Of a stretch of 64,000 nucleotides of DNA, positions 2,496-61,127 are shown in pieces; position 1 is the stretch's first letter, and each line of letters opens with the position of its first letter. The notes beneath the pieces were generated by a model. It did not search any database. It saw only the letters and a list, made by a program, of their open reading frames with translations, and was not told the DNA's origin. A program made the position numbers and the translations under genes. The DNA comes from a virus (lineage: Duplodnaviria > Heunggongvirae > Uroviricota > Caudoviricetes): the IMG/VR virus record IMGVR_UViG_3300050026_000241. One strand, written 5' to 3'.

Positions 2496-3965
2496 ATGGC
2501 GGTTCGCAACTATCTGGAAATCGGAACGTGTGATTTTGATACACTGAACGACAAGTTCGCTGACCGCGAACATTGGTGTGGTGTGTCTATCGAGGCCGTG
2601 CCGGAGTATTTCAAACGACTTCGCAAGCTGGATAAGAATGAGTACATCAATGCAGTCTGCTTGGTGGAAAAGAATAAAGAGACGTGTGACTTTCATCATG
2701 TTCCCAGTGATGTTATCACCCGACACGGGCTGCCAGATTGGTTGCGTGGCTGCGGGGCTATTGACAAGGCTATCCAGCCGTCGTTGAGAGCCTACGGCAG
2801 ACACGTCATTACGACACGGCTTCCGGTCGTTTCGATTCGGGACGTTCTCAATCGGGACGTTTTCAAAGACCAGATCACCCGAACCATCCGTGTTGACTTG
2901 TTGAAGATTGACACAGAGGGGTACGACCTGGCGCTGCTTAATGCAGTCTTGGATATTACCTGTCCGACGAACATTGTCTTTGAGACGTGGGGCATAAGTC
3001 CGGCCATCTTCCCGATTCTGGAAAAGCGTCTACTCGACTTGGGTTATAGTTGCCGAGGCCGAAGCGGCGATAATGTGCAGTATTCGTTGCCGTCAGTGTT
3101 GATGATCGGTGAGGCAGCCTGGTCCACGGGGTCGATTGCCAAAGACCTGATCCATGCAAGCAGTTGGCATGGCCGATTGTTGAATTGGAACCGATACCCG
3201 AAGGATTTGCCAGCCAGTTTCCCTGAGTACGATGCGGTAGTGATTTTCGGACTACATTCGCCGACCACCTGGTCCGCACTGGCCCCGCACGGTGTCATTT
3301 GCTGCGGCCCGTGTGAATTGCTCACGACGAATACGTGGCGCAATAATACGGGCGGTGCTTTGTGGGGAGGCTGCTTTGGTGCTGTATCGCGGGAATGCTA
3401 CGACGGAGTGAAGGCCGTGGCTACAAAGGACGTGTTCTACACGCCGGCCAGCACCAGGCTATCGAGGTTCACCCGGCGTCCGGCACGAGAAGTCAAGACA
3501 TTGGGTTGGTGTGCTATCAAGGACAGTGCGAAGAATTTTGGCGGCATTGACTTGAAGCGGTTTTCGATGTTCGATGAGATTGCCAAAGCAGCCTGTCTCA
3601 ACTCTCGTGTGTCAGGTCGTGACTTTACATACGATACGATGCAGGACTTCTACGACTCGATTGATCTGCTGGTCTGCACTTCGGTGTCGGAGGGTGGCCC
3701 GTTGCCTGTGTTTGAAGCGATTGCGTGCGGTGTGCCAGTGATCTCGACACCAGTAGGTCTCGTCAAGGAAACAAGCACCATACCGACATTCTCGACGGTT
3801 CCCTACGCCGCGAGTCTTATAGACTCGATACGAAGCTGCCCTGACCAGTACGCTAACGCACAATACAAGGAACTTGAAGGAATGTCAACTGATCGACTTA
3901 TCCGGCATTGGGAAGATTTCTTCGCCGGCTGTGCGAAAGTCAACAAGACGAAAACCTTCCTATAA
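2496..3965 (+). CDS. FkbM-family methyltransferase fused to GT1 (GT-B) glycosyltransferase
   Basis: N-terminal FkbM signature RVDLLKIDTEGYDLALL; C-terminal GT-B motif SEGGPLPVFEAIACGVPVIST. Confidence 0.65.
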   Translation: MAVRNYLEIGTCDFDTLNDKFADREHWCGVSIEAVPEYFKRLRKLDKNEYINAVCLVEKNKETCDFHHVPSDVITRHGLPDWLRGCGAIDKAIQPSLRAYGRHVITTRLPVVSIRDVLNRDVFKDQITRTIRVDLLKIDTEGYDLALLNAVLDITCPTNIVFETWGISPAIFPILEKRLLDLGYSCRGRSGDNVQYSLPSVLMIGEAAWSTGSIAKDLIHASSWHGRLLNWNRYPKDLPASFPEYDAVVIFGLHSPTTWSALAPHGVICCGPCELLTTNTWRNNTGGALWGGCFGAVSRECYDGVKAVATKDVFYTPASTRLSRFTRRPAREVKTLGWCAIKDSAKNFGGIDLKRFSMFDEIAKAACLNSRVSGRDFTYDTMQDFYDSIDLLVCTSVSEGGPLPVFEAIACGVPVISTPVGLVKETSTIPTFSTVPYAASLIDSIRSCPDQYANAQYKELEGMSTDRLIRHWEDFFAGCAKVNKTKTFL

Positions 3966-3968
3966 GGA

Positions 3969-4382
3969 ATGATTGTGAGCAAGAAAAGAACACTCCGACG
4001 CCGGCTGCAAAATGCCTGCCGCTGGTTTCACGACTGCTGGTATTGGATCAAGTGCCGCCTACTTTGTCGTTACAATGTAGTGGTGTGCAGGCCGCTGCCG
4101 CCGACCTGGGTTGACCGTGATTACCTTTTGCTGTTTGCGTCCTTCCAGATTTTGGAAGACTTTGTGGACCGGGAGGAAGGTCACTTTTACGAGAACGTCT
4201 ACCCGCTCTACCTTGACTGCGGCAAGGAACGTGCCCGCGAGGAAGAGCGGGATTGGGACGCAATTCGCAACCTTTACGTTTGGTGGCAGAGTCGTAAGGC
4301 CGACAAGTACGCCGACGATTACGATGAAGACAGCGACATGCTTCACCGACTTATTGACCTGCGGAAATACCTCTGGACCTGA
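3969..4382 (+). CDS. hypothetical protein
   Basis: 137-aa ORF, Trp/Cys-rich N-terminus, acidic C-terminus; operon-coupled. Confidence 0.4.
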   Translation: MIVSKKRTLRRRLQNACRWFHDCWYWIKCRLLCRYNVVVCRPLPPTWVDRDYLLLFASFQILEDFVDREEGHFYENVYPLYLDCGKERAREEERDWDAIRNLYVWWQSRKADKYADDYDEDSDMLHRLIDLRKYLWT

Positions 4383-4391
4383 AAGAAAACA

Positions 4392-5393
4392 ATGAGAATC
4401 CCCAAATCGCTTTCCTATTCGTCGCTCTCGCTGTTTGAAAAAGATTGCGAAGAGTTTTACATGAAGTACCTTGCGGACAAGTCGCCCGAGCGGCTGCCGC
4501 AAGAACCGCCGATGGCCGTGGGCTCCGCGTTTGACGCCTACTGCAAGTCGTCGCTCCATGCCGCCCTGTTCGGGGCCGGAGCCGATCCGCAATTTGAGTT
4601 GGCGACCATCTTTGAGTCGCAAGTCGAACCGCAGTGCCGAGATTTTGCCTTTGAGGCCGGTAAGCATGTTTTTGAGTGCTATGTGTTGTGCGGGGCCTAC
4701 GACGAATTGCTGTCGCTCTTGAAGCAAAGCACCGAGCCACCGCGATTCGAGTTCACGGTAAAGGGAACCATCGGCGGCGCACCGTTCTTGGGTAAGCCTG
4801 ACTGTCGGTTCGTTCTCGATCTCGGTCAGGGACGCATTAGCGTGGTGTTCGACTTCAAAGTTCATGGCTACTGCTCCAAGTATGGGGCGTCCCCGACGAA
4901 GGGCTACCGGCTGTGCCGCGATGCCTATAAGACGGACAAGCCGAGCCGCTCACACATGACGGCGCACAAGAACTACCTGGGCATGGATTACCGGGGCATG
5001 GAGATCAACAGCGGCTATATGGAGTATTGCGGAAAAGAATACGCTGACCAGCTTTGCCTCTACGGCTGGCTGCTGGGCGAACCTGTCGGCGACGAGAATG
5101 TCATCATGGCCTTGGACGAGGTTGTGGCGAAGTATATGGGCGAAGGCAACAAGCCTCTGCTCCGCGTTGCCAACCATATCGGCCGCGTGAGCAAGGCTCA
5201 CCAGGACGCGCTCGTGAAACGGGTCGAGAAGTGTTGGGCCGCGATTCAGAGCGGCCATATCTTCCCCGAGATGTCGCTGGCCGACAGTCAGAACCGGCAG
5301 TCGATTCTCGATGAAATGTCCGGTGCCCTGTTGACGGACGGTTCGGTCAAGGACGATTTCTTCGTCGATTGCGTGCGGAGTCCCAAATGGTAA
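4392..5393 (+). CDS. putative PD-(D/E)xK nuclease-family protein
   Basis: N-terminus SYSSLSLFEKDCEEFYMKYL resembles Cas4/RecB-like nuclease N-termini; VFDFKVHGY supplies a (D/E)xK. Confidence 0.45.
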   Translation: MRIPKSLSYSSLSLFEKDCEEFYMKYLADKSPERLPQEPPMAVGSAFDAYCKSSLHAALFGAGADPQFELATIFESQVEPQCRDFAFEAGKHVFECYVLCGAYDELLSLLKQSTEPPRFEFTVKGTIGGAPFLGKPDCRFVLDLGQGRISVVFDFKVHGYCSKYGASPTKGYRLCRDAYKTDKPSRSHMTAHKNYLGMDYRGMEINSGYMEYCGKEYADQLCLYGWLLGEPVGDENVIMALDEVVAKYMGEGNKPLLRVANHIGRVSKAHQDALVKRVEKCWAAIQSGHIFPEMSLADSQNRQSILDEMSGALLTDGSVKDDFFVDCVRSPKW

Positions 5394-23062: not shown

Positions 23063-23329
23063 ATGAGAGAGACCGAACTACTGAATGCCCTGGCACTTAG
23101 CAAGCCCGGCATCGAGATTCGCATGTGCAAAGGGCACAAAGTCTCGGTGCGGATGCGCGGCGAGCCCTTAGTGTGCGGCATCGGCACGACGCTTATGGAA
23201 GCCGCCATTGACTGTGCCCACTGGGTTTTCGACGTGTGTGCTGACCGCCCCGAGTTGGAAGAAAAGATTCCCGAAGTCCTGGCCGCTTTGTGTGCCTATG
23301 ACGAACATTCACAGGGTTTACAACTATGA
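23063..23329 (+). CDS. hypothetical protein
   Basis: ATG 16 nt after T7-like promoter motif ending ~23047. Confidence 0.45.
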   Translation: MRETELLNALALSKPGIEIRMCKGHKVSVRMRGEPLVCGIGTTLMEAAIDCAHWVFDVCADRPELEEKIPEVLAALCAYDEHSQGLQL

Positions 23330-23430
23330 ACGCCACCGACCGGTTGTTGGCACTTTTGGCTTTTGGCGTGCTGATGGGCTTTGCGCTTTGCACGGCCACC
23401 GCCATGCTCATTGCACTGTTCACCCGATAA
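23326..23430 (+). CDS. very small TM protein
   Basis: 34 aa; approximate. Confidence 0.25.
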   Translation: MNATDRLLALLAFGVLMGFALCTATAMLIALFTR

Positions 23431-23447
23431 CCCATACGACACGAACT

Positions 23448-24194
23448 ATGAATGACAGCATTGGCGACCGATTCAAGAACAATTATGAGGCCCCCGCGCG
23501 TCACCTACTGACCCGCAGGACGCCCGTAATCGTGCGCATTGACGGTCGTGCCTTCCACACCTTCACCCGCGACTTCCTCAAGCCGTTCGACCGTGAGTTA
23601 ATCAACATGATGGTGTTGTCGGCCATGCACGTCTTTGGCGAAATGCAGGGCTGCAAGATAGCTTACGTCCAGTCGGACGAGGCCAGCTTCGTGTTGACCG
23701 ACTACGACACTTTCGACACGCAGCCTTGGTTCGGCTACGTCAAAAGCAAGGTGGAAAGTGTCGCGGCGTCCTGCATGACGGCTGCGTTCGCACGTTGCCA
23801 GCATCTTGCGGGTGGGCGGTACGCCGACTCACTGGCGACATTTGACGCCCGTGCCTTCAACATCCCCAGGAATGAGGTAGTAAACTACTTCGTGTGGCGG
23901 GCGAAGGACTGGGCGCGCAACAGCTTGTCGATGTACTGCCAGTCGATCTTCTCTCACCGCGAGTTGCAGGGCAGGAACTCCAAGGCCATGCACGAAATGC
24001 TGTTTGCGAAAGGCCGTAACTGGACACGCGACCTTTGCAACGCCGAGAAGAATGGGACGTTCTTGATTGCCCCGAAAGAGGCCGTGGCCGCGAATTCCGA
24101 CATCGAACCAAGATACGGCGACATTGATGCCGTATGGGAAGCCGTTCGACCAAAAGAGGCCGTCACTACCGCAATCGAAATCGTAAGCGAATAA
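23448..24194 (+). CDS. Thg1-like protein (tRNA-His guanylyltransferase family, 3'-5' nucleotidyltransferase)
   Basis: N-terminal VIVRIDGRAFHTFT matches Thg1/TLP signature. Confidence 0.65.
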   Translation: MNDSIGDRFKNNYEAPARHLLTRRTPVIVRIDGRAFHTFTRDFLKPFDRELINMMVLSAMHVFGEMQGCKIAYVQSDEASFVLTDYDTFDTQPWFGYVKSKVESVAASCMTAAFARCQHLAGGRYADSLATFDARAFNIPRNEVVNYFVWRAKDWARNSLSMYCQSIFSHRELQGRNSKAMHEMLFAKGRNWTRDLCNAEKNGTFLIAPKEAVAANSDIEPRYGDIDAVWEAVRPKEAVTTAIEIVSE

Positions 24195-25590: not shown

Positions 25591-25821
25591 ATGGCCGGAG
25601 TAAGTGACGAACCTGATGCCCGAAACCGACACCGCAAGAAGGCGTCGAAACACAAGAAGTACGGCATACAGGAATGGTCAAAATGGTTCAAGAAGTGGGC
25701 CTTTAGTCACTGGTATGAGACAGAAAAGGCCCGAGACCAAGCATTCGTCGTCTTGGAGAAGGCGAATGAGCGTTTGAAAGCATACGACAAGGACAGTCCT
25801 ATTAGAAAGGTAGACAGGTGA
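25591..25821 (+). CDS. basic hypothetical protein
   Basis: ATG inside track ORF 25585..25821. Confidence 0.4.
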   Translation: MAGVSDEPDARNRHRKKASKHKKYGIQEWSKWFKKWAFSHWYETEKARDQAFVVLEKANERLKAYDKDSPIRKVDR

Positions 25822-26387
25822 AAAACCCCGGCGACCAAGTTATACCGAAGTCAATGATACGCACGTTCCAAAGCGACTTTCGCATTCTGGACGAGTGGAC
25901 CATTGAGTATGAGGAAGACGGCGAGGCGTTGGTCGGTCGGTTTTGCACCAACGGGCAGTGTTGCCATAATGTGTCCGATAAGTTAGCATCCATCTACCCT
26001 TGTCCGGCCGACGTACCGATACATAAGTACGTCCGGCACGAAATGATACACATTGCCCTGGCCGCGTTGTTCGGCCCGGACGAGCCTTACGGCGTCCGAC
26101 GCCGGTTGGAGGAAGAGTTCGTCCAAGACGTTTGCGCCTTGACCCAAAGCAATGGAGAAACCATGAGTCCCGAGCGATTCCCCGAAATGACCGCCACACT
26201 GGCCGAAGACCGGCCCGAATACCTCCCACTCCCCGTCTGCGTTTACGGTGAGCGGACAACAATTTCCTGTTGGCGTTTGAGTTTGTGGGAAAGGCTCAAG
26301 CTGCTGTTCACCGGCCGCTTGTGGCTGCTGGTCCTGAACTTCCGGCAGCCGTTACAGCACAACTTGAACGCAACAAACGCAACATAG
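25818..26387 (+). CDS. hypothetical protein with HExxH motif
   Basis: RHEMIHIALAALFG; GTG start (alt ATG 25854). Confidence 0.4.
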   Translation: MKNPGDQVIPKSMIRTFQSDFRILDEWTIEYEEDGEALVGRFCTNGQCCHNVSDKLASIYPCPADVPIHKYVRHEMIHIALAALFGPDEPYGVRRRLEEEFVQDVCALTQSNGETMSPERFPEMTATLAEDRPEYLPLPVCVYGERTTISCWRLSLWERLKLLFTGRLWLLVLNFRQPLQHNLNATNAT

Positions 26388-27779
26388 TCAAATGACCAAG
26401 CCAATACCTAGAACAACCCCGCAATCGGCTTTTGCCACTATCCAGGGCGACTTGTCGCCATATTGGAATGACAAGTGCCGCGCGTTGCAATCGCGCCTCT
26501 GGTGCCCAACCGAGAATGATTGCAAAGTGTTGTTCGATTCTTCGGAGTTCATTGAGCGTGTTGCCTCACCGTCTGCCGGAGATTTGTGCCCGTCGTTTGT
26601 ACTTCCCGCTCTATCTGGCGAGCGACCCAAGGAAAAGGAAGTTAGCCGTAAGATAAGGCTCTATCCGAAGAACTTGGAGAAGTGGGAGGAATGTTTGTGG
26701 GCGGCTCGTCGGGCCTACAACCTCGCTATTGAGGCTTTCAAGGAATGGAAGAAGGATGTGCCGAGCGAGGCAGATAACCAATCCGCCTTTCGCCGCTCAA
26801 TCCGTGAAAAGGTAGCGGCTGAATTTCCCGGTGTGCCGCGCGTAATGCTTGACGAAGCGGTCAACAGCGCTTACCTCACACGGCAAGCCATCATTAAGAA
26901 AAGATCGCAAGGTGAGCAATGCGACTTTTCCTTCCGTTGCCGGAAGGACACGAAGCAATCGTTTGTAGTTGAGAGGCTTGCGAACGGTGGGCCGTTTCCA
27001 ACCTTTCTGAAATGCCATCTTACCGAGGCGATTCCGAGCGAATCTGCCGGGAAAATGGCGGTTGTTGTGCGAGAGCATGGTAGATGGTTTCTGACGTGTA
27101 AGGTCAAGGTGCCGGTTGCTGCCGAGAGCCAAGGTAGGAAAACCGTCGCTTGCGACCCCGGCGTAAGAACTTTTCTCGCTACCTACTCTCTTAGTGATTG
27201 TGCGTTTATCGGCCACGGCTTTGCCGCCAAGATACGACCAATGCTCTTGCAGCTTGATAAGTTGCTTGGGCGGCGGAAGTGCTTGAGCAACATCAAGGAA
27301 TGGAAGCAATGTCACCGGGATAGGAACCGTAACTTGCAAAAGCGAATCGACTCGATCTTTTGCAAGGTGCAAGACTTGATGGACGATCTGCACCGGCGTG
27401 CGGCCGATTTTCTCACAAAGAACTTCGACGTGATTTTGCTTCCGACATTTGAGACTTCCGAAATGGTTTCCAAGAGCGCACGCAAAATTGGTAGCCGCTC
27501 CGTCCGGTCGATGCTATCCCTTGGTCACTATCGCTTCAAGCAATTCCTGATTTGGTCGGCCTACAAGCGTGGCAAGATCATAGTGGATTGCAGCGAAGCG
27601 TGGACCACATGCACCGACTCCCGAAGCGGTGTGATTATTGATGTTGGTTCAAGGGAATGGATCAACGGACTTCACAGGGATGTAAACGGCTCGCGGGGTA
27701 TTTTCCTCCGAGCGATGGCGGCTTGAGCCCGAAACATCCCCAGCAAACGCTACAAAATGTTGCGTTTGTTGCGTTTCAA
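26364..27779 (+). mobile_element. TnpB-only transposon-like unit bounded by inverted repeats
   Basis: left TTGAACGCAACAAACGCAACAT (~26364-26385) vs right ATGTTGCGTTTGTTGCGTTTCAA (~27757-27779), 22/23 match; tnpB fills the interval. Confidence 0.5.
26392..27726 (+). CDS. tnpB: TnpB-like RuvC-fold nuclease (IS200/IS605 OrfB family)
   Basis: RKIRLYPKNLEKWEECLWAARRAYN; RuvC-I KTVACDPGVRTF; RuvC-II LLPTFETSEM; RuvC-III HRDVNGSRGI; zinc finger degenerate. Confidence 0.75.
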   Translation: MTKPIPRTTPQSAFATIQGDLSPYWNDKCRALQSRLWCPTENDCKVLFDSSEFIERVASPSAGDLCPSFVLPALSGERPKEKEVSRKIRLYPKNLEKWEECLWAARRAYNLAIEAFKEWKKDVPSEADNQSAFRRSIREKVAAEFPGVPRVMLDEAVNSAYLTRQAIIKKRSQGEQCDFSFRCRKDTKQSFVVERLANGGPFPTFLKCHLTEAIPSESAGKMAVVVREHGRWFLTCKVKVPVAAESQGRKTVACDPGVRTFLATYSLSDCAFIGHGFAAKIRPMLLQLDKLLGRRKCLSNIKEWKQCHRDRNRNLQKRIDSIFCKVQDLMDDLHRRAADFLTKNFDVILLPTFETSEMVSKSARKIGSRSVRSMLSLGHYRFKQFLIWSAYKRGKIIVDCSEAWTTCTDSRSGVIIDVGSREWINGLHRDVNGSRGIFLRAMAA

Positions 27780-28015
27780 ATCAAGAGAGTATTCGCAACT
27801 TGGAGCCGGACAAGTGCGTCAAGTTGGAGTGGTTCAAGTGGGACAAGCTGCCCGAACCTTTGATGCCCGGCATCGTGCATCTGGTCGCCTGCGGGTACAA
27901 CCCATTCATACCTGACATTCGAGGTTGCCATGACTGACATACAAGCGGAGTCCGCCAAGCGTGTAATTCCGCTTGCGCCCGATACCGCATGAACCCCGAC
28001 AGCTATTGAGTTAAA

Positions 28016-28600: not shown

Positions 28601-29185
28601 ATGATGCTTCAACTGCAAGATGAAGAACTCTTTTTGCTCTACAAGACGACTCGTAACAACGAATACTTCACCACCGTCTACAATCGCCAGGTGGGTCGGG
28701 TTCGTCACTACCTGATGCGTCTCATGCCGGCATCTGGCGGCTGCATCCATAGCAGTTACATCGACGACCTAATCCAGCTAGTCTTCACCGACCTGGTCGG
28801 ACACGACAGCTTCAAGAAGAGCACGCTGCTTAACTACCTTCTTGAGCGAGCCAAGTGGCATTGCCTGGACCTGCGCCGACACCTGACCGCCAAGAAGCGG
28901 GCCACATCTATGCCGGAAGTTGAAATCAGCGAGACCGACAGCATTACCACCATCACACCGTTAGACGACCTGTGCGAGAAAGAGTCGCGCGAGGTTCTCC
29001 GAGACATGGTCGAGCGTTTGCCCGAAATTGAGCGAAATATCATACAACTTCTGCTGAACGGCCACAGTAAGAGCAAAATCGCCAAGGTTTTGAGCATTAG
29101 CCCTCGTAAATTCCTCACCCGTTACAACTTCGCCCTTCGGTTGTTGAAAATCATGGCCCACAGCAGAGAGCTAACCGTCGCATGA
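28601..29185 (+). CDS. sigma-70 family (ECF-like) RNA polymerase sigma factor
   Basis: region 4 HTH LPEIERNIIQLLLNGHSKSKIAKVLSISPRKFLTRYNFALRLLK; region-2-like LIQLVFTDLVGHDSF. Confidence 0.6.
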   Translation: MMLQLQDEELFLLYKTTRNNEYFTTVYNRQVGRVRHYLMRLMPASGGCIHSSYIDDLIQLVFTDLVGHDSFKKSTLLNYLLERAKWHCLDLRRHLTAKKRATSMPEVEISETDSITTITPLDDLCEKESREVLRDMVERLPEIERNIIQLLLNGHSKSKIAKVLSISPRKFLTRYNFALRLLKIMAHSRELTVA

Positions 29186-29481
29186 AGTTCTTCGGCTGGA
29201 ATCCCGAATGGCTTGAAGGTCGAATTGTCAACCGCCGACTGACGGATGCCTATGACATTTCGATCTGCCGACCCTCAAAATGGGGTAATCCATTCGAGGT
29301 TGAAGTATACGGCCGAGAGCGGGCTATCGCCCTTTTTGCGATACATCTACGACGCCGCCCCGATCTTATCGCATCTTTGCCCGAGCTATCGGGCAAAATT
29401 CTAGGCTGCTGTTGTTATCCGCTACACTGCCACGGTGCTATTTTGCTCCAATTTCTATGGGAATACCACGGCTTGCTATGA
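29182..29481 (+). CDS. DUF4326-family protein
   Basis: RPSKWGNPF and GKILGCCCYPLHCHGAIL. Confidence 0.5.
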   Translation: MKFFGWNPEWLEGRIVNRRLTDAYDISICRPSKWGNPFEVEVYGRERAIALFAIHLRRRPDLIASLPELSGKILGCCCYPLHCHGAILLQFLWEYHGLL

Positions 29482-30515
29482 ATCTTAAATCAATCGGCTT
29501 CTACACGCTCAGCGACGAGCGCTGTCTTAACGTCAGTGCGTTGTCGCCTATGCAGCGGTGCGAAATGATCCTGACGGACAAATGCAACTTCAAGTGTCCG
29601 TACTGCCGGGGCCTGCGCAACGATTGCAAGGGCGACTTGCCGATTGAAGACGCGATGGCGACCCTCAAGCTGTGGTGCGACGACGGCTTGAAGAACGTGC
29701 GGTTCTCTGGCGGCGAACCCCTCACATACCCGCATCTGGACGCCTTGGTGAAGTACGCCAAGTTCCGTGGTGTCGAACACATAGCGATCTCTTCCAACGG
29801 CTCGTTCCCGTTCGGCCGCTACTACGAATTGATTACCGAGGGCGTCAACGACTTCTCAATCAGCCTGGACGCTTGCTGTAGTTCATACGGCGACAAGATG
29901 GCGGGCGTCAGCGGGCAGTTTGAACGGGTGACGTACAACATCGTCGAGTTGTCAAAGCTAGTTTACACGACGGTCGGCGTGGTACTCACAGCCGAGACCG
30001 TTTCCACGACTCGCAGAGTCGTGGAGTTTGCACACGGCCTGGGCGTGACCGACATACGAATCATCCCGTGCGCCCAAGAGGGGAACGGCAACGCTGAACT
30101 TGTTCGACAGGTTGGACTAATTTCGCAAAAAATCTTGGACGCCCACCCTATATTAAAATATCGGGTACAGAACATCCTTAATGGTGTGCTAATTCGCGGC
30201 TTACAAGCGTCCGATACGCACACCTGTTACCTGGCCCTGGACGACAGCGTAGTCAGCGGCGGGTATCACTATCCCTGTGTTATTTACCTGCGTGAGAAGG
30301 GCGAGCCAATCGGCAAAGTCGGCCCGAACATGAGAGGCCAGCGAGTAGCGTGGATGGCCCAGCACGACACCCACAAAGACCCGATCTGCTCTAAGCAATG
30401 TCTCGATGTCTGCTGCGCGCATAATAATCGTTGCGCCTTTTATCAAGAGAGGAAGCACTGGTTTGTCACGCAGACTGCATCTACCGATGCCGAAAATGTC
30501 AGCACGCGACATTGA
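29478..30515 (+). CDS. radical SAM protein with C-terminal Cys-rich region
   Basis: CNFKCPYC (CxxxCxxC); RFSGGEPL; C-terminal CSKQCLDVCCAHNNRC. Confidence 0.7.
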   Translation: MNLKSIGFYTLSDERCLNVSALSPMQRCEMILTDKCNFKCPYCRGLRNDCKGDLPIEDAMATLKLWCDDGLKNVRFSGGEPLTYPHLDALVKYAKFRGVEHIAISSNGSFPFGRYYELITEGVNDFSISLDACCSSYGDKMAGVSGQFERVTYNIVELSKLVYTTVGVVLTAETVSTTRRVVEFAHGLGVTDIRIIPCAQEGNGNAELVRQVGLISQKILDAHPILKYRVQNILNGVLIRGLQASDTHTCYLALDDSVVSGGYHYPCVIYLREKGEPIGKVGPNMRGQRVAWMAQHDTHKDPICSKQCLDVCCAHNNRCAFYQERKHWFVTQTASTDAENVSTRH

Positions 30516-39817: not shown

Positions 39818-40375
39818 ATGATCGAATTCATGCCCGAACCAACTTTGATTTTGGAAAACAAAGACGACCTTGCCGCCCTTCTCGACACGAAGCCGGAAGC
39901 CGAAATTCGTTTGCACCGTCACCGTATCAAGAGCCGTTGGCTTATCGGCCTGATCGACGAAATCGCCGCTTCCGGCCGTTACCCCTACAACGCCACGGTG
40001 AACAAGTTGGCTTGCGAGCGCCTGGGCTACCCGCCGAAATCCGAAGCCGAGTATTCGCGTGAGGGCACTGCCCTATCCTGGCTTATTTACAACGCGCAGA
40101 ACTTCCGGCGTAGCGACCAGTTTATCGCGGCCGGCTACACCCCGTTTACGCCCGCCATGCTTGACGAAGCGTACACCATCGGGGCGAAGGTCGAAGTGGC
40201 GGCCGAAACGCTGCTAGGCGGTTCCGCCGTCATCGTCCTAACCCCGAAGGACATCGACGGCAAACTCTACGCCGTGCTGCCGCGCAAGCGGACCCAGCAC
40301 TTGCCGCCGATGGGTCAACCGGCGAAAATCATCAAGGCCGGCAAGCGGGTGAAAAAATCCGTTGCCGCCGCTTGA
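39818..40375 (+). CDS. hypothetical protein
   Basis: 185 aa; co-transcribed. Confidence 0.5.
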   Translation: MIEFMPEPTLILENKDDLAALLDTKPEAEIRLHRHRIKSRWLIGLIDEIAASGRYPYNATVNKLACERLGYPPKSEAEYSREGTALSWLIYNAQNFRRSDQFIAAGYTPFTPAMLDEAYTIGAKVEVAAETLLGGSAVIVLTPKDIDGKLYAVLPRKRTQHLPPMGQPAKIIKAGKRVKKSVAAA

Positions 40376-40399
40376 CTTCTCACCGGCACATGGTATGAT
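40372..40399 (+). promoter_or_regulatory. sigma70-like promoter cassette
   Basis: canonical; leader to 40434. Confidence 0.6.
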
Positions 40400-40433
40400 T
40401 GAGTAAGTTCAAACTACAACAGGGAACAACACA

Positions 40434-58727: not shown

Positions 58728-59132
58728 ATGTTCAACACCGAGCGAGCCGAAGCCACCGTGAGACTTGATACCGCTATCCGATTCCGACAAATGGGCGGGG
58801 GTTACTGGTATCCCGATACGACCACCGACCGCAACGCTATCAAGTTGGCAGGGGTCAAGACTTTCAAGCCGACGAAGACCGAGGATGAAATCCTGACGCA
58901 ACTTTCCGGGGTTGCCTTTTGCGAATTTCTGACGCCGCCCCTGGGCCGCAACAGCGAGAAGGCCGCCCTCGTTACCGCCTTTCAAGCGCGGCAAACCGCC
59001 TACGCCGCCCAGCCCCTAAGCGACCGTGACGCAAAGCGGCTTGCAATCGTCGAAACCGCGCTTGAGCAACTGGAATACCCCACGGCCGAAGCTATCGACG
59101 CCGCCGCGCATATTCTGGAAATGCTGGCTTGA
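58728..59132 (+). CDS. hypothetical protein
   Basis: cassette promoter + leader. Confidence 0.55.
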   Translation: MFNTERAEATVRLDTAIRFRQMGGGYWYPDTTTDRNAIKLAGVKTFKPTKTEDEILTQLSGVAFCEFLTPPLGRNSEKAALVTAFQARQTAYAAQPLSDRDAKRLAIVETALEQLEYPTAEAIDAAAHILEMLA

Positions 59133-59156
59133 CTTCTCTCCGGCACATGGTATGAT
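59129..59156 (+). promoter_or_regulatory. sigma70-like promoter cassette
   Basis: leader to 59206. Confidence 0.6.
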
Positions 59157-59205
59157 TGAGTAAGTTCAAACTACAACGCAACCGCAAGCAACAGGAACAA
59201 AGACC

Positions 59206-61069: not shown

Positions 61070-61105
61070 GTATTAAGTAACAACGCAACGCAACGCAACG
61101 CAACG
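61070..61105 (+). repeat. (CAACG)n pentanucleotide repeat in 5' leader
   Basis: 5-6 units; exact count uncertain. Confidence 0.7.
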
Positions 61106-61127
61106 CAACGCAACAGAAAGTAGAACA

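Follow-up and report, generated by a model that had tools for sequence, protein, structure and literature searches.

A lone tnpB gene in a Caudoviricetes genome lies within a probable tnpA-deleted IS607-family element with a predicted guide-RNA scaffold

We analysed a 64,000-nucleotide (nt) stretch of DNA (hereafter, the window) from a virus of the Caudoviricetes (IMG/VR record IMGVR_UViG_3300050026_000241). The window is phage-like: nearly all of its open reading frames (ORFs) are on one strand, and it encodes a Thg1-like enzyme, a sigma factor, DNA methyltransferases and an exonuclease. At approximately 26358-27787 it contains an element of about 1.43 kb formed by a lone tnpB gene bracketed by inverted repeats (Table 1). 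The 444-aa ORF and both repeat arms were found exactly where an initial annotation, made from the letters of the DNA, had placed them. The arms share a perfectly complementary 19-nt core (26367-26385 and 27757-27775) that extends to 22/23 nt with a single 1-nt indel, located in the outer TTG/TTGA extension. This 19-mer has only two sites in the 64 kb, both at the element (0.01 expected), and each arm consists of two copies of the 9-mer AACGCAACA in tandem. The evidence presented below makes it very likely that this is a non-autonomous insertion sequence of the IS607 family with an intact tnpB, a guide-RNA scaffold and both ends.

Related copies of the element were found in an IMG/VR viral contig (L004, 57% identity) and in the relatives L005 (78%), L006 (82%) and L007 (71%); 80 metagenomic and 80 genomic loci were also compared with their flanks. 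The inverted repeats were present at both ends of L004-L007, L012-L015 and L021, and a diverged form was present in many further loci. Every related copy examined carried them at both ends, in agreement with their initial assignment to the element. In L007, L014, L015, L004 and most of the 80 metagenomic loci, a gene encoding a MerR-type helix-turn-helix (HTH) plus a Resolvase domain (tnpA, a serine recombinase) lies directly upstream of tnpB and overlaps it. The L007 TnpA (194-205 aa) matched Pfam Resolvase and, faintly, MerR; the left repeat of L007 precedes tnpA, indicating that the repeats bracket a two-gene element. In the autonomous copies L004 (3760-5380) and L007 (2425-4084) the tnpB frame is open for 516-518 codons and runs over tnpA in another frame for about 500 nt, while the tnpA/tnpB overlaps of described IS607 elements are short, far below this length. 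Residues 1-85 of the window TnpB are an N-terminal extension that matches part of this dual-coding stretch.

The window copy had been noted to lack an adjoining tnpA, and tblastn with the L007 TnpA found no match anywhere in the 64-kb window, nor any in the element even at E<=10. The window, L005, L006, L012 and L013 form a tnpA-less lineage with a common deletion junction in five different contexts, in which ATG-(A/G)C(A/C)-AA(A/G)-CCAA, opening the tnpB frame, comes 0-15 nt after the left-end (LE) repeats. In L005 and L006 the 3' part of tnpA survives in the alternative frame, decayed and interrupted by stop codons. This lineage is old (77-88% nucleotide identity between copies). Because tnpA is absent here and present between the same repeats in the relatives, we read the window copy, with considerable confidence, as a non-autonomous, tnpA-deleted derivative and not as an autonomous IS607 member. 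The same kind of element was observed in Vibrio phage F88 (L001, OZ196284.1) at 2768-4483, with GAACGCAAA-type end repeats and a partial tnpA remnant. The copies in Vibrio phages F88 and F100 (L002) are annotated only as 'transposase' or 'hypothetical protein', and the F100 copy ends in ...ATCGG.

The termini of IS607 elements are unrelated to each other and form no true terminal inverted repeat; they often carry imperfect inverted repeats at unequal distances from the two tips, and short direct motifs (9 bp in IS1535) that nucleate TnpA binding (PMC6188088). Termini and target share a dinucleotide, and no target duplication is formed (PMC6188088). The repeats of the window had been described as terminal, with the element limited to 26364-27779. 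However, similarity between copies runs past the repeats on both sides, so that the repeats are subterminal: the two 9-mers of each arm lie 12-14 nt inside the left tip and 12 nt inside the right tip, and the true ends are outside, at about 26358 (after the flank C-AG, 26355-26357) and 27787. The order of an end-to-end copy is flank-C-[WG], 12-14 nt, two 9-mers, body, two 9-mers, approximately 5-6 nt, TCAAG-[WG] and flank. L012 and L013 contain a 1444-nt element that is 99.9% identical between unrelated flanks, the identity starting at CAG and running from CAGCCTAACTTG... to ...AAATCAAGAG. At the right end the same pattern of similar copies with different flanks was present in L022/L023/L025 and in L036/L037. 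The near-identity of copies in unrelated flanks means that the element lineage still moves, in line with the initial view of a small mobile element in a phage-like genome.

The two ends are linked by a dinucleotide. On the right, more than 20 loci with unrelated flanks lose their similarity immediately after (T)CAAG-AG or (T)CAAG-TG (window position 27787). On the left, all 19 well-placed loci (7 AG and 12 TG), the Paracoccaceae chromosomal copies included, had a C followed by the terminal dinucleotide of that copy's own right end, always at position -14 relative to the first repeat motif. This covariation of two otherwise unrelated junctions is as a 2-bp serine-recombinase crossover predicts, and AG/TG would be the counterpart of the classical IS607 GG. 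GG termini occur in more distant members of this protein family (L041, L060-type and L002). Beyond the shared 2 nt, no target-site duplication was seen in the copies compared. A first guess at the left boundary, CTTG at 26363/26364, was replaced by CAG at 26355-26357 on the basis of L012/L013 and the 19 loci.

The initial annotation had excluded an IS200/IS605 arrangement, and this held: the transposase of the relatives is a serine recombinase and not the Y1 (HUH) TnpA of that group, which goes with subterminal hairpins and insertion 3' of a TTAC-like motif. The TTAC noted upstream of the left repeat is indeed present (26352-26355, 8 nt before the repeat) but the left flanks of other copies do not share it; the motif that they conserve is C-[A/T]G. 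The same annotation had favoured a TnpB-only transposon with terminal inverted repeats (TIRs), which would make it a new class moved by an unrelated transposase (for example DDE) encoded elsewhere. The length of the repeats (19 nt perfect), which bracket a lone tnpB with no transposase nearby, fits such a class, and TnpB/Fanzor genes in TIR transposons are known (PMC10691335; PMC10711439). By contrast, the similarity of independent copies extends 12-14 nt past the repeats on both sides with no target-site duplication, the relatives hold a serine recombinase between the same repeats, the arms are tandem 9-mer pairs as at IS607 ends, and the dinucleotide in the flank varies together with that at the end in the manner expected of a serine-recombinase crossover. 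The new-class explanation is largely refuted by these data and we regard it as extremely improbable.

The window TnpB matched the NCBIfam profile guided_TnpB (NF040570) with E=1.3e-18 and 67.5 bits (cut-off 100), residues 87-435 aligning to nearly the whole profile. It also matched PHROG 506 ('transposase', E=5.7e-23) and, below threshold, Pfam Cas12f1-like_TNB (E=1e-4); PF07282 and PF01385 scored below their cut-offs (22.7 vs 26.3 and 15.1 vs 30.5 respectively). A search of 5.8 billion proteins gave 1607 relatives, and a family profile built from 21 of these strongly matched one solved structure, the mimivirus Fanzor2 L79 (PDB 9b0l, E=1.1e-33). With an AlphaFold2 model of the protein (predicted local distance difference test, pLDDT, 76; predicted template modelling score, pTM, 0.72), the best Foldseek match was again Fanzor2 (1.8e-19), followed by ISDra2 TnpB, the IS607 ISFba1 TnpB and Cas12f (E from 1.8e-19 to 1e-12). 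The hidden Markov model (HMM) E-values, the PDB profile match and Foldseek therefore support the TnpB identity first proposed from motifs. The protein is predicted to have a TnpB/Cas12f-type fold, with the mimivirus Fanzor2 as closest solved relative.

The likely catalytic residues D255 (in DPG), E402 and D430 (in RDVNG) are invariant across the family alignment, RuvC-I having the invariant DPG as DPGVRTF. The position of the canonical RuvC-II glutamate is occupied by an invariant proline (Pro351), aligned to the E of AVEDLN in 9yyg and to G in L79. The invariant E402 stands 6-7 positions before the site of the first zinc-finger cysteine (ExxxxxxC, here ExxxxxxD) and, from the alignment and not from geometry, it is probably the catalytic glutamate at the Fanzor-type alternative position ('Ealt'). 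Given the invariant proline, the catalytic glutamate is probably not in the RuvC-II segment initially proposed, LLPTFETSEM. 'DPG plus Ealt' is the Fanzor/pro-Fanzor signature of Yoon et al., whose search pattern demanded a zinc finger (PMC10711439). TnpB proteins typically have a C4 zinc finger located between RuvC-II and RuvC-III; here, 103 of the 104 family loci were without both of its CxxC pairs; in their place the family alignment has a conserved EAYTSKT-DSRTG...INGLDRDVNGARGI with neither pair. The CTDSRSG previously reported as a degenerate zinc finger is present, but it is a trait of the whole clade and not the decay of a single copy. Zinc-finger loss has been reported for whole TnpB branches (PMC10691335). 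The RIIIr-4 clade (zinc-finger-less, with the RuvC-III Asp changed to His) was ruled out for this family, which retains DRDxN.

Members of the family were found in Paracoccaceae, Thiomargarita, Chloroflexota, Planctomycetota, cyanobacteria and phages. In bacterial genomes the family is multi-copy and widespread, no copy being more than 42% identical to the window TnpB. Cultured Vibrio phages have 29-35% identical homologues as lone 'transposase' genes, located between tail genes or beside an HNH endonuclease and thyA. Among the tnpA-less copies, tnpB is under purifying selection, the N-terminal extension included (ratio of nonsynonymous to synonymous substitution rates, dN/dS, of 0.09-0.19 in the core and 0.11-0.29 in residues 1-85). 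These values bear on whether the element is an inert, decaying IS607 relic, with an ORF open by chance and with functionless protein, RNA and ends. The loss of tnpA, an insertion-associated deletion that killed two neighbouring genes, a left tip that may be recombinant and the missed curated HMM cut-offs agree with a relic. Nevertheless, we consider a relic very unlikely: dN/dS against the sister copies is 0.09-0.29, the frame is open over all 444 codons and retains every invariant residue of the family, the arms are still 19/19 identical and the scaffold helices are intact.

Next, the right end (RE) was analysed as RNA, and a structured scaffold was found in the 3' end of the ORF plus the downstream region, where the omega-RNA of a TnpB would be expected. 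Because the right end comes only 61 nt after the stop codon, the scaffold must reach into the tnpB ORF. In an alignment of 20 right ends, in which the central part of the RNA is poorly aligned, a GGY-A(A/G)-CUUGA-RCC hairpin is conserved at the stop codon. Its loop CUUGA (27722-27726) pairs with UCAAG (27781-27785), the 5 nt before the terminal dinucleotide. This helix between the loop and the 3' end was spotted by eye and then tested by pair counts. Standard pairs were present in 100 of 100 cells of the loop helix, including compensatory and G-U changes, and the 3-bp stem at the stop codon was 98% paired (GGC/GCC alternating with GGU/ACC). When the partner was slid by 1-3 columns, the two helices together fell from 94% to 13-45% paired. 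The G-U pairs fit the sense strand only. At least six compensated pair types were seen; across 51 distinct loci, the loop/partner types were CUUGA/UCAAG, CUUGG/UCAAG, CUUGG/CCAAG, CUUAG/CUAAG, CUUAG/CUGAG, CUUAC/GUAAG (the type of the Vibrio phage F88 copy), CUUGC/GUAAG and CUUGU/GCAAG. In the right-end RNA (reRNA) of ISDra2 and IS607, a pseudoknot is formed by five nucleotides flanking the guide and an apical loop (PMC10711439). Computationally, the right end is predicted to be a covariation-supported guide-RNA scaffold with this ISDra2/IS607-type pseudoknot geometry.

The inner part of the scaffold is predicted to be a helix of GAAAC (27731-27735) with GUUUC (27773-27777) enclosing a long hairpin (27741-27771). 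This hairpin would form between the two right-end 9-mers and an imperfect inverted copy of them farther upstream (CAGCAAACGCUACA). The same two inner helices were predicted independently for the window, L004, L006, L007, L012 and L036, despite diverged sequence, and the window fold had z = -2.8 to -3.0. The right repeat arm appears to be both a presumed TnpA site in the DNA and a helix in the RNA. A further, tentative hairpin inside the ORF (27689-27713) has compensatory third-codon changes in the closer relatives only, with 64% of cells paired overall. RNAalifold on the 20-sequence alignment gave only a 5-bp alternative helix, GCAAC/GUUGC. As a separate observation, the base 5' of the CUUGA loop (A/G; alignment A2 column 105, window 27721) tracks the first base of the dinucleotide (T/A; column 182, window 27786) in 19 of 20 loci. 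This tracking holds though AG- and TG-type copies interleave by protein identity; an A-U pair would lengthen the helix, while G with A is nonstandard.

As a rule, TnpB and IS607 elements take their guide from the DNA that directly follows the right end (PMC11061315; PMC10711439), which makes 27788-27807 the candidate guide. This 20-mer is unique in the window, where it matches neither a promoter nor a leader but only the adjoining NUDIX remnant. From the conserved left flank, the C of C-[A/T]G is a candidate determinant of the target-adjacent motif (TAM). The difference between C-[A/T]G in the left flank and G-[A/T]G at the right end would give TnpB a simple means of sparing occupied sites.

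Domestication was the other alternative first considered. Here, TnpB would serve the phage as a TldR-like regulator or as a nuclease against competitors; it would be immobile, and the repeats would be RNA structure only. The tnpA-less lineage is old yet under purifying selection and was found only in phage-like contigs, its right repeat lies within a conserved RNA fold, and the repeat 9-mer also occurs in eight phage mRNA leaders, all of which could be expected of a domesticated gene. However, near-identical copies occupy unrelated flanks and both DNA ends have been kept, including the left repeats, which an RNA scaffold does not need. Moreover, the protein does not look nuclease-dead (the residues at the three catalytic positions are invariant), unlike the TldR repressors, and the candidate guide is not at a promoter or leader of the window but matches the NUDIX remnant. 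Domestication is therefore improbable in our view, and a tnpA-deleted derivative of the IS607 family is preferred in its place.

Table 1. Positions of the element, its predicted parts and the flanking genes in the window.
Feature	Position	Strand	Basis or remark
Upstream phage gene (left flank), function unassigned, 3' end truncated	25818..26357	+	ORF list and homologue comparison
Left junction C-AG; AG is the proposed 2-bp crossover dinucleotide, flank side	26355..26357	+	L012/L013 and 19 loci
Left end (LE): tip, two direct 9-mers, short leader up to the ATG	26358..26391	+	Matches published IS607 ends (PMC6188088)
LE tip CACAACTTG	26358-26366	+	
Left inverted-repeat arm TTGAACGCAACAAACGCAACAT	26364..26385		22 nt; ends 6 nt before the tnpB ATG
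LE direct 9-bp motifs AACGCAACA, two	26367-26375, 26376-26384	+	
tnpB ORF	26392..27726	+	444 aa, ATG start; RNA-guided-nuclease homologue, IS607/Fanzor2-like zinc-finger-less clade
Putative scaffold hairpin GCUCGCGGGG-UAUUUU-CCUCCGAGC within the tnpB 3' end (tentative)	27689..27713	+	Predicted fold
Hairpin GGC-GG-CUUGA-GCC across the stop codon	27717..27729	+	Alignment of right ends, pair counts
Right end (RE), ending ...AAAUCAAG-AG	27727..27787	+	Limit of copy-to-copy similarity; NUDIX homology from 27788
Inner scaffold domain (predicted)	27731..27777	+	Same nested architecture in independent folds of six copies
Right inverted-repeat arm ATGTTGCGTTTGTTGCGTTTCAA	27757..27779		23 nt; begins 30 nt after the tnpB stop
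Right-arm 9-mers, two	27758-27766, 27767-27775	-	
TCAAG, then terminal crossover dinucleotide AG (proposed)	27781-27785, 27786-27787	+	Within RE
Candidate guide AGUAUUCGCAACUUGGAGCC	27788..27807	+	First 20 nt of the right flank; from the TnpB/IS607 rule
NUDIX hydrolase gene remnant (right flank)	27788..27937	+	Protein matches P0122, P0124, P0125, P0127

The insertion site was reconstructed from relatives of the two flanking genes. The upstream gene stays open across the left end of the element as far as a TAG (26385-26387), so that this gene now ends in an element-encoded tail, ...HNLNATNAT. With this stop 4 nt before the ATG, translation of tnpB could be coupled to that of the upstream gene. 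Homologues of the upstream gene (P0121, P0123, P0126 and the L011 gene) continue for 15-46 codons beyond ...PLQ, and nucleotide similarity of the left flank to L011 and L009 reaches approximately 26364, with a 1-nt gap. On the right, homology to NUDIX genes begins exactly at 27788: the last 48 codons or so have been kept, and the N-terminal 94 or so, including the Nudix box, have been lost. The NUDIX relatives P0122, P0124, P0125 and P0127 (PF00293, 139-144 aa) match only along the stretch of the remnant (74-88% identity). In L011 the intact NUDIX site reads ...CCTTGG-CAG followed by AGTATCCGCAACTTGGAGCC, with one mismatch to the candidate guide; around the junction this empty site is TGG-CAG-AGTATC, the CAG being followed by AGTATCCGC.

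In the relatives, the upstream gene and the NUDIX gene are adjacent (L011) or one to two genes apart (L009 and L010), L010 being syntenic with the window through the Thg1-like gene. These comparisons indicate that a deletion accompanies the element here and has removed NUDIX codons 1-94 together with the upstream gene's 3' end. Both neighbouring genes should be marked as disrupted in annotations. In L009 and L011 the displaced gene sequence is CA(A/G)CC(A/G)CAACTG, and the left tip of the window, CAG-CACAACTTG, is similar to it, which suggests, by inference only, that the deletion was microhomology-mediated or a TnpA-mediated adjacent deletion. The possibility that the insertion split one gene, with its flanks fused in frame, was ruled out, as the flanks belong to different genes in the relatives; a search of viral contigs with the protein that such a fusion would encode retrieved just a distant relative of the upstream gene. 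Among GenBank phages, Megablast with the 14 kb surrounding the element gave no match, and consequently there is no near relative for a direct empty-site comparison. The TGGCAG in the L005 left flank was also considered as a NUDIX remnant, but tblastn did not support this, and the shared CAG is better read as a target/TAM motif.

The following history and life cycle would account for these features. The element would descend from a two-gene element (the serine recombinase tnpA plus tnpB) through a deletion in which tnpA lost its 5' part. The 9-mers would, by analogy with IS1535 and IS607, be binding sites for the MerR-type DNA-binding domain of TnpA. Transposition would depend on TnpA provided in trans by an autonomous relative with the same end motifs. 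Excision and integration would proceed via a 2-bp crossover (AG here, TG in the sister lineages) with no target duplication. An RNA transcribed through the 3' end of tnpB and the right end would most likely form an RNA-guided nuclease with TnpB. This nuclease would be expected to cleave sites where the guide sequence lies beside C-[A/T]G, namely copies of the locus without the element. In co-infecting related phages, we infer that the element would be copied into the cut genome, or that genome would be excluded.

Several points weigh against this explanation. The terminal dinucleotide is AG or TG, and not the GG typical of IS607, and the 64-kb window has no tnpA that could serve this copy as a source of transposase. 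The left tip, CACAAC, differs from those of the closest relatives (CCTAAC and CTTAAC); given its likeness to the upstream gene's displaced 3' end, it may be recombinant and no longer competent. No curated Pfam or NCBIfam cut-off for TnpB was reached, though the E-values are significant and the NCBIfam match is near full length. An Rfam search of the right end found nothing above noise, RAGATH-18 (the scaffold of one IS607 TnpB group) included. The covariation comes from related sequences, and the structure was partly read from them. Finally, a promoter scan found no promoter-like site in or just upstream of the element, either for tnpB or for the RNA.

As in IS607-family elements (IS607, IS1535, ISC1926 and ISXfa1), the autonomous relatives have a MerR-HTH/serine-recombinase TnpA directly upstream of tnpB, and the ends have no true terminal inverted repeat but subterminal inverted repeats of short direct motifs (9 bp, as in IS1535). 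A dinucleotide common to ends and target, with no duplication seen beyond those 2 nt, resembles the IS607 arrangement apart from its letters, and a guide RNA running through the right end with a pseudoknot beside the guide is predicted here as in that family. IS607 TnpA binds the end motifs and transposes via a double-stranded circle. The differences are the missing tnpA of the window copy, the AG/TG crossover, a TnpB without zinc finger and the overlap of about 500 nt between tnpA and tnpB in autonomous copies. Compared to the ISFba1-type IS607 TnpB (Ren et al. 2024, PDB 8iaz), the IS607 association, a similar fold and a guide immediately 3' of a conserved scaffold are common to both. The ISFba1-type TAM ends in a crossover-type dinucleotide (AGGAG or GAGGG; PMC11061315), while the TAM proposed here is C-[A/T]G. 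Moreover, the ISFba1-type reRNA is RAGATH-18-derived, with no match here, and extends approximately 184 nt downstream, as against 61 nt from stop to right end.

The best sequence and structure match was to Fanzor2 and the pro-Fanzors (mimivirus L79, PDB 9b0l; cyanobacterial IS607 TnpBs, Yoon et al. 2023). They share the DPG in RuvC-I, a replaced canonical RuvC-II Glu (Pro here, Gly in L79), a Glu at Ealt and the association with IS607-type serine recombinases. By contrast, both CxxC pairs are absent in 103/104 loci of this family, and the loci are in phages and many bacterial phyla, not only in cyanobacteria and eukaryotic viruses. The clade thus joins a Fanzor-type active-site signature to complete loss of the zinc finger and is widespread beyond cyanobacteria; pattern searches that require CxxC would have missed it. 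The element fits the known IS607/TnpB framework and changes nothing known, its value being that of a clean natural example. It indicates that tnpB, its scaffold and both presumed TnpA-binding ends persist and spread in phages after loss of the transposase, which bears on the role of TnpB in the survival of these elements.

Stand-alone tnpB elements of the IS1341 type also consist of a lone tnpB with both transposon ends and multiply without a transposase of their own. However, they are IS200/IS605-derived, with hairpin ends and Y1 partners, while the window element is IS607-derived with serine-recombinase ends. Phage homing endonucleases (SegF and Mob) are likewise selfish nuclease genes between phage genes, with neighbours damaged or converted, and cutting of element-free relatives in co-infection would be expected for both. 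They differ in that recognition here would be RNA-guided instead of protein-based, and in that transposon ends make unrelated sites reachable. The tnpA-less lineage might accordingly be a phage-adapted, zinc-finger-less TnpB with a Fanzor-type active site that has long been kept by cutting element-free relatives in co-infection, an RNA-guided analogue of phage homing endonucleases; we put this forward tentatively, and judge it rather doubtful.

Some observations concern the phage itself. Genes near the element, at 23208-24194, 28601-29185 and 29412-30515, encode a tRNA-His guanylyltransferase (Thg1)-like protein (PHROG 4717, 2.5e-75), a sigma-factor-like protein and a radical-SAM protein respectively. 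A 34-nt sigma70-like promoter, GCTTGACTTCTnnCCGGCACATGGTATGATTGAG, has at least 13 copies with no more than 3 mismatches (0 expected) on the + strand between 40370 and 62591 (for example at 40370-40403 and 59127-59160), each followed by an A/C-rich leader. The same promoter is present in the flanks of the L012 and L005 copies, which ties those contigs to related phages.

The end 9-mer AACGCAACA occurs 13 times in the window (0.86 expected). Eight exact occurrences are in phage mRNA leaders on the + strand (44125, 45085, 45100, 56273, 58319, 60624, 61107 and 62210), and several of the 9-mers directly precede a GGGAG ribosome-binding site. The leader 9-mers behind the 13-fold promoter could, with less weight than the conclusions above, reflect cross-talk between the element and phage expression via the protein or the complementary right-end RNA. 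The end motif of the insertion-sequence family is older than the phage group, because Paracoccaceae copies have CGCAACGAACGCAACAT. One leader contains a tandem run of about six (AACGC) units at 61080-61115, just upstream of an ATG at approximately 61128. Lastly, the contig with the closest intact arrangement of the upstream and NUDIX genes (L009; 593-3418 and 6491-7861) also has DUF1501 and PSCyt1 genes, which we take to be typical of Planctomycetota, and a phage integrase; this hints that it is a prophage and hints at the host phylum of the phage group.

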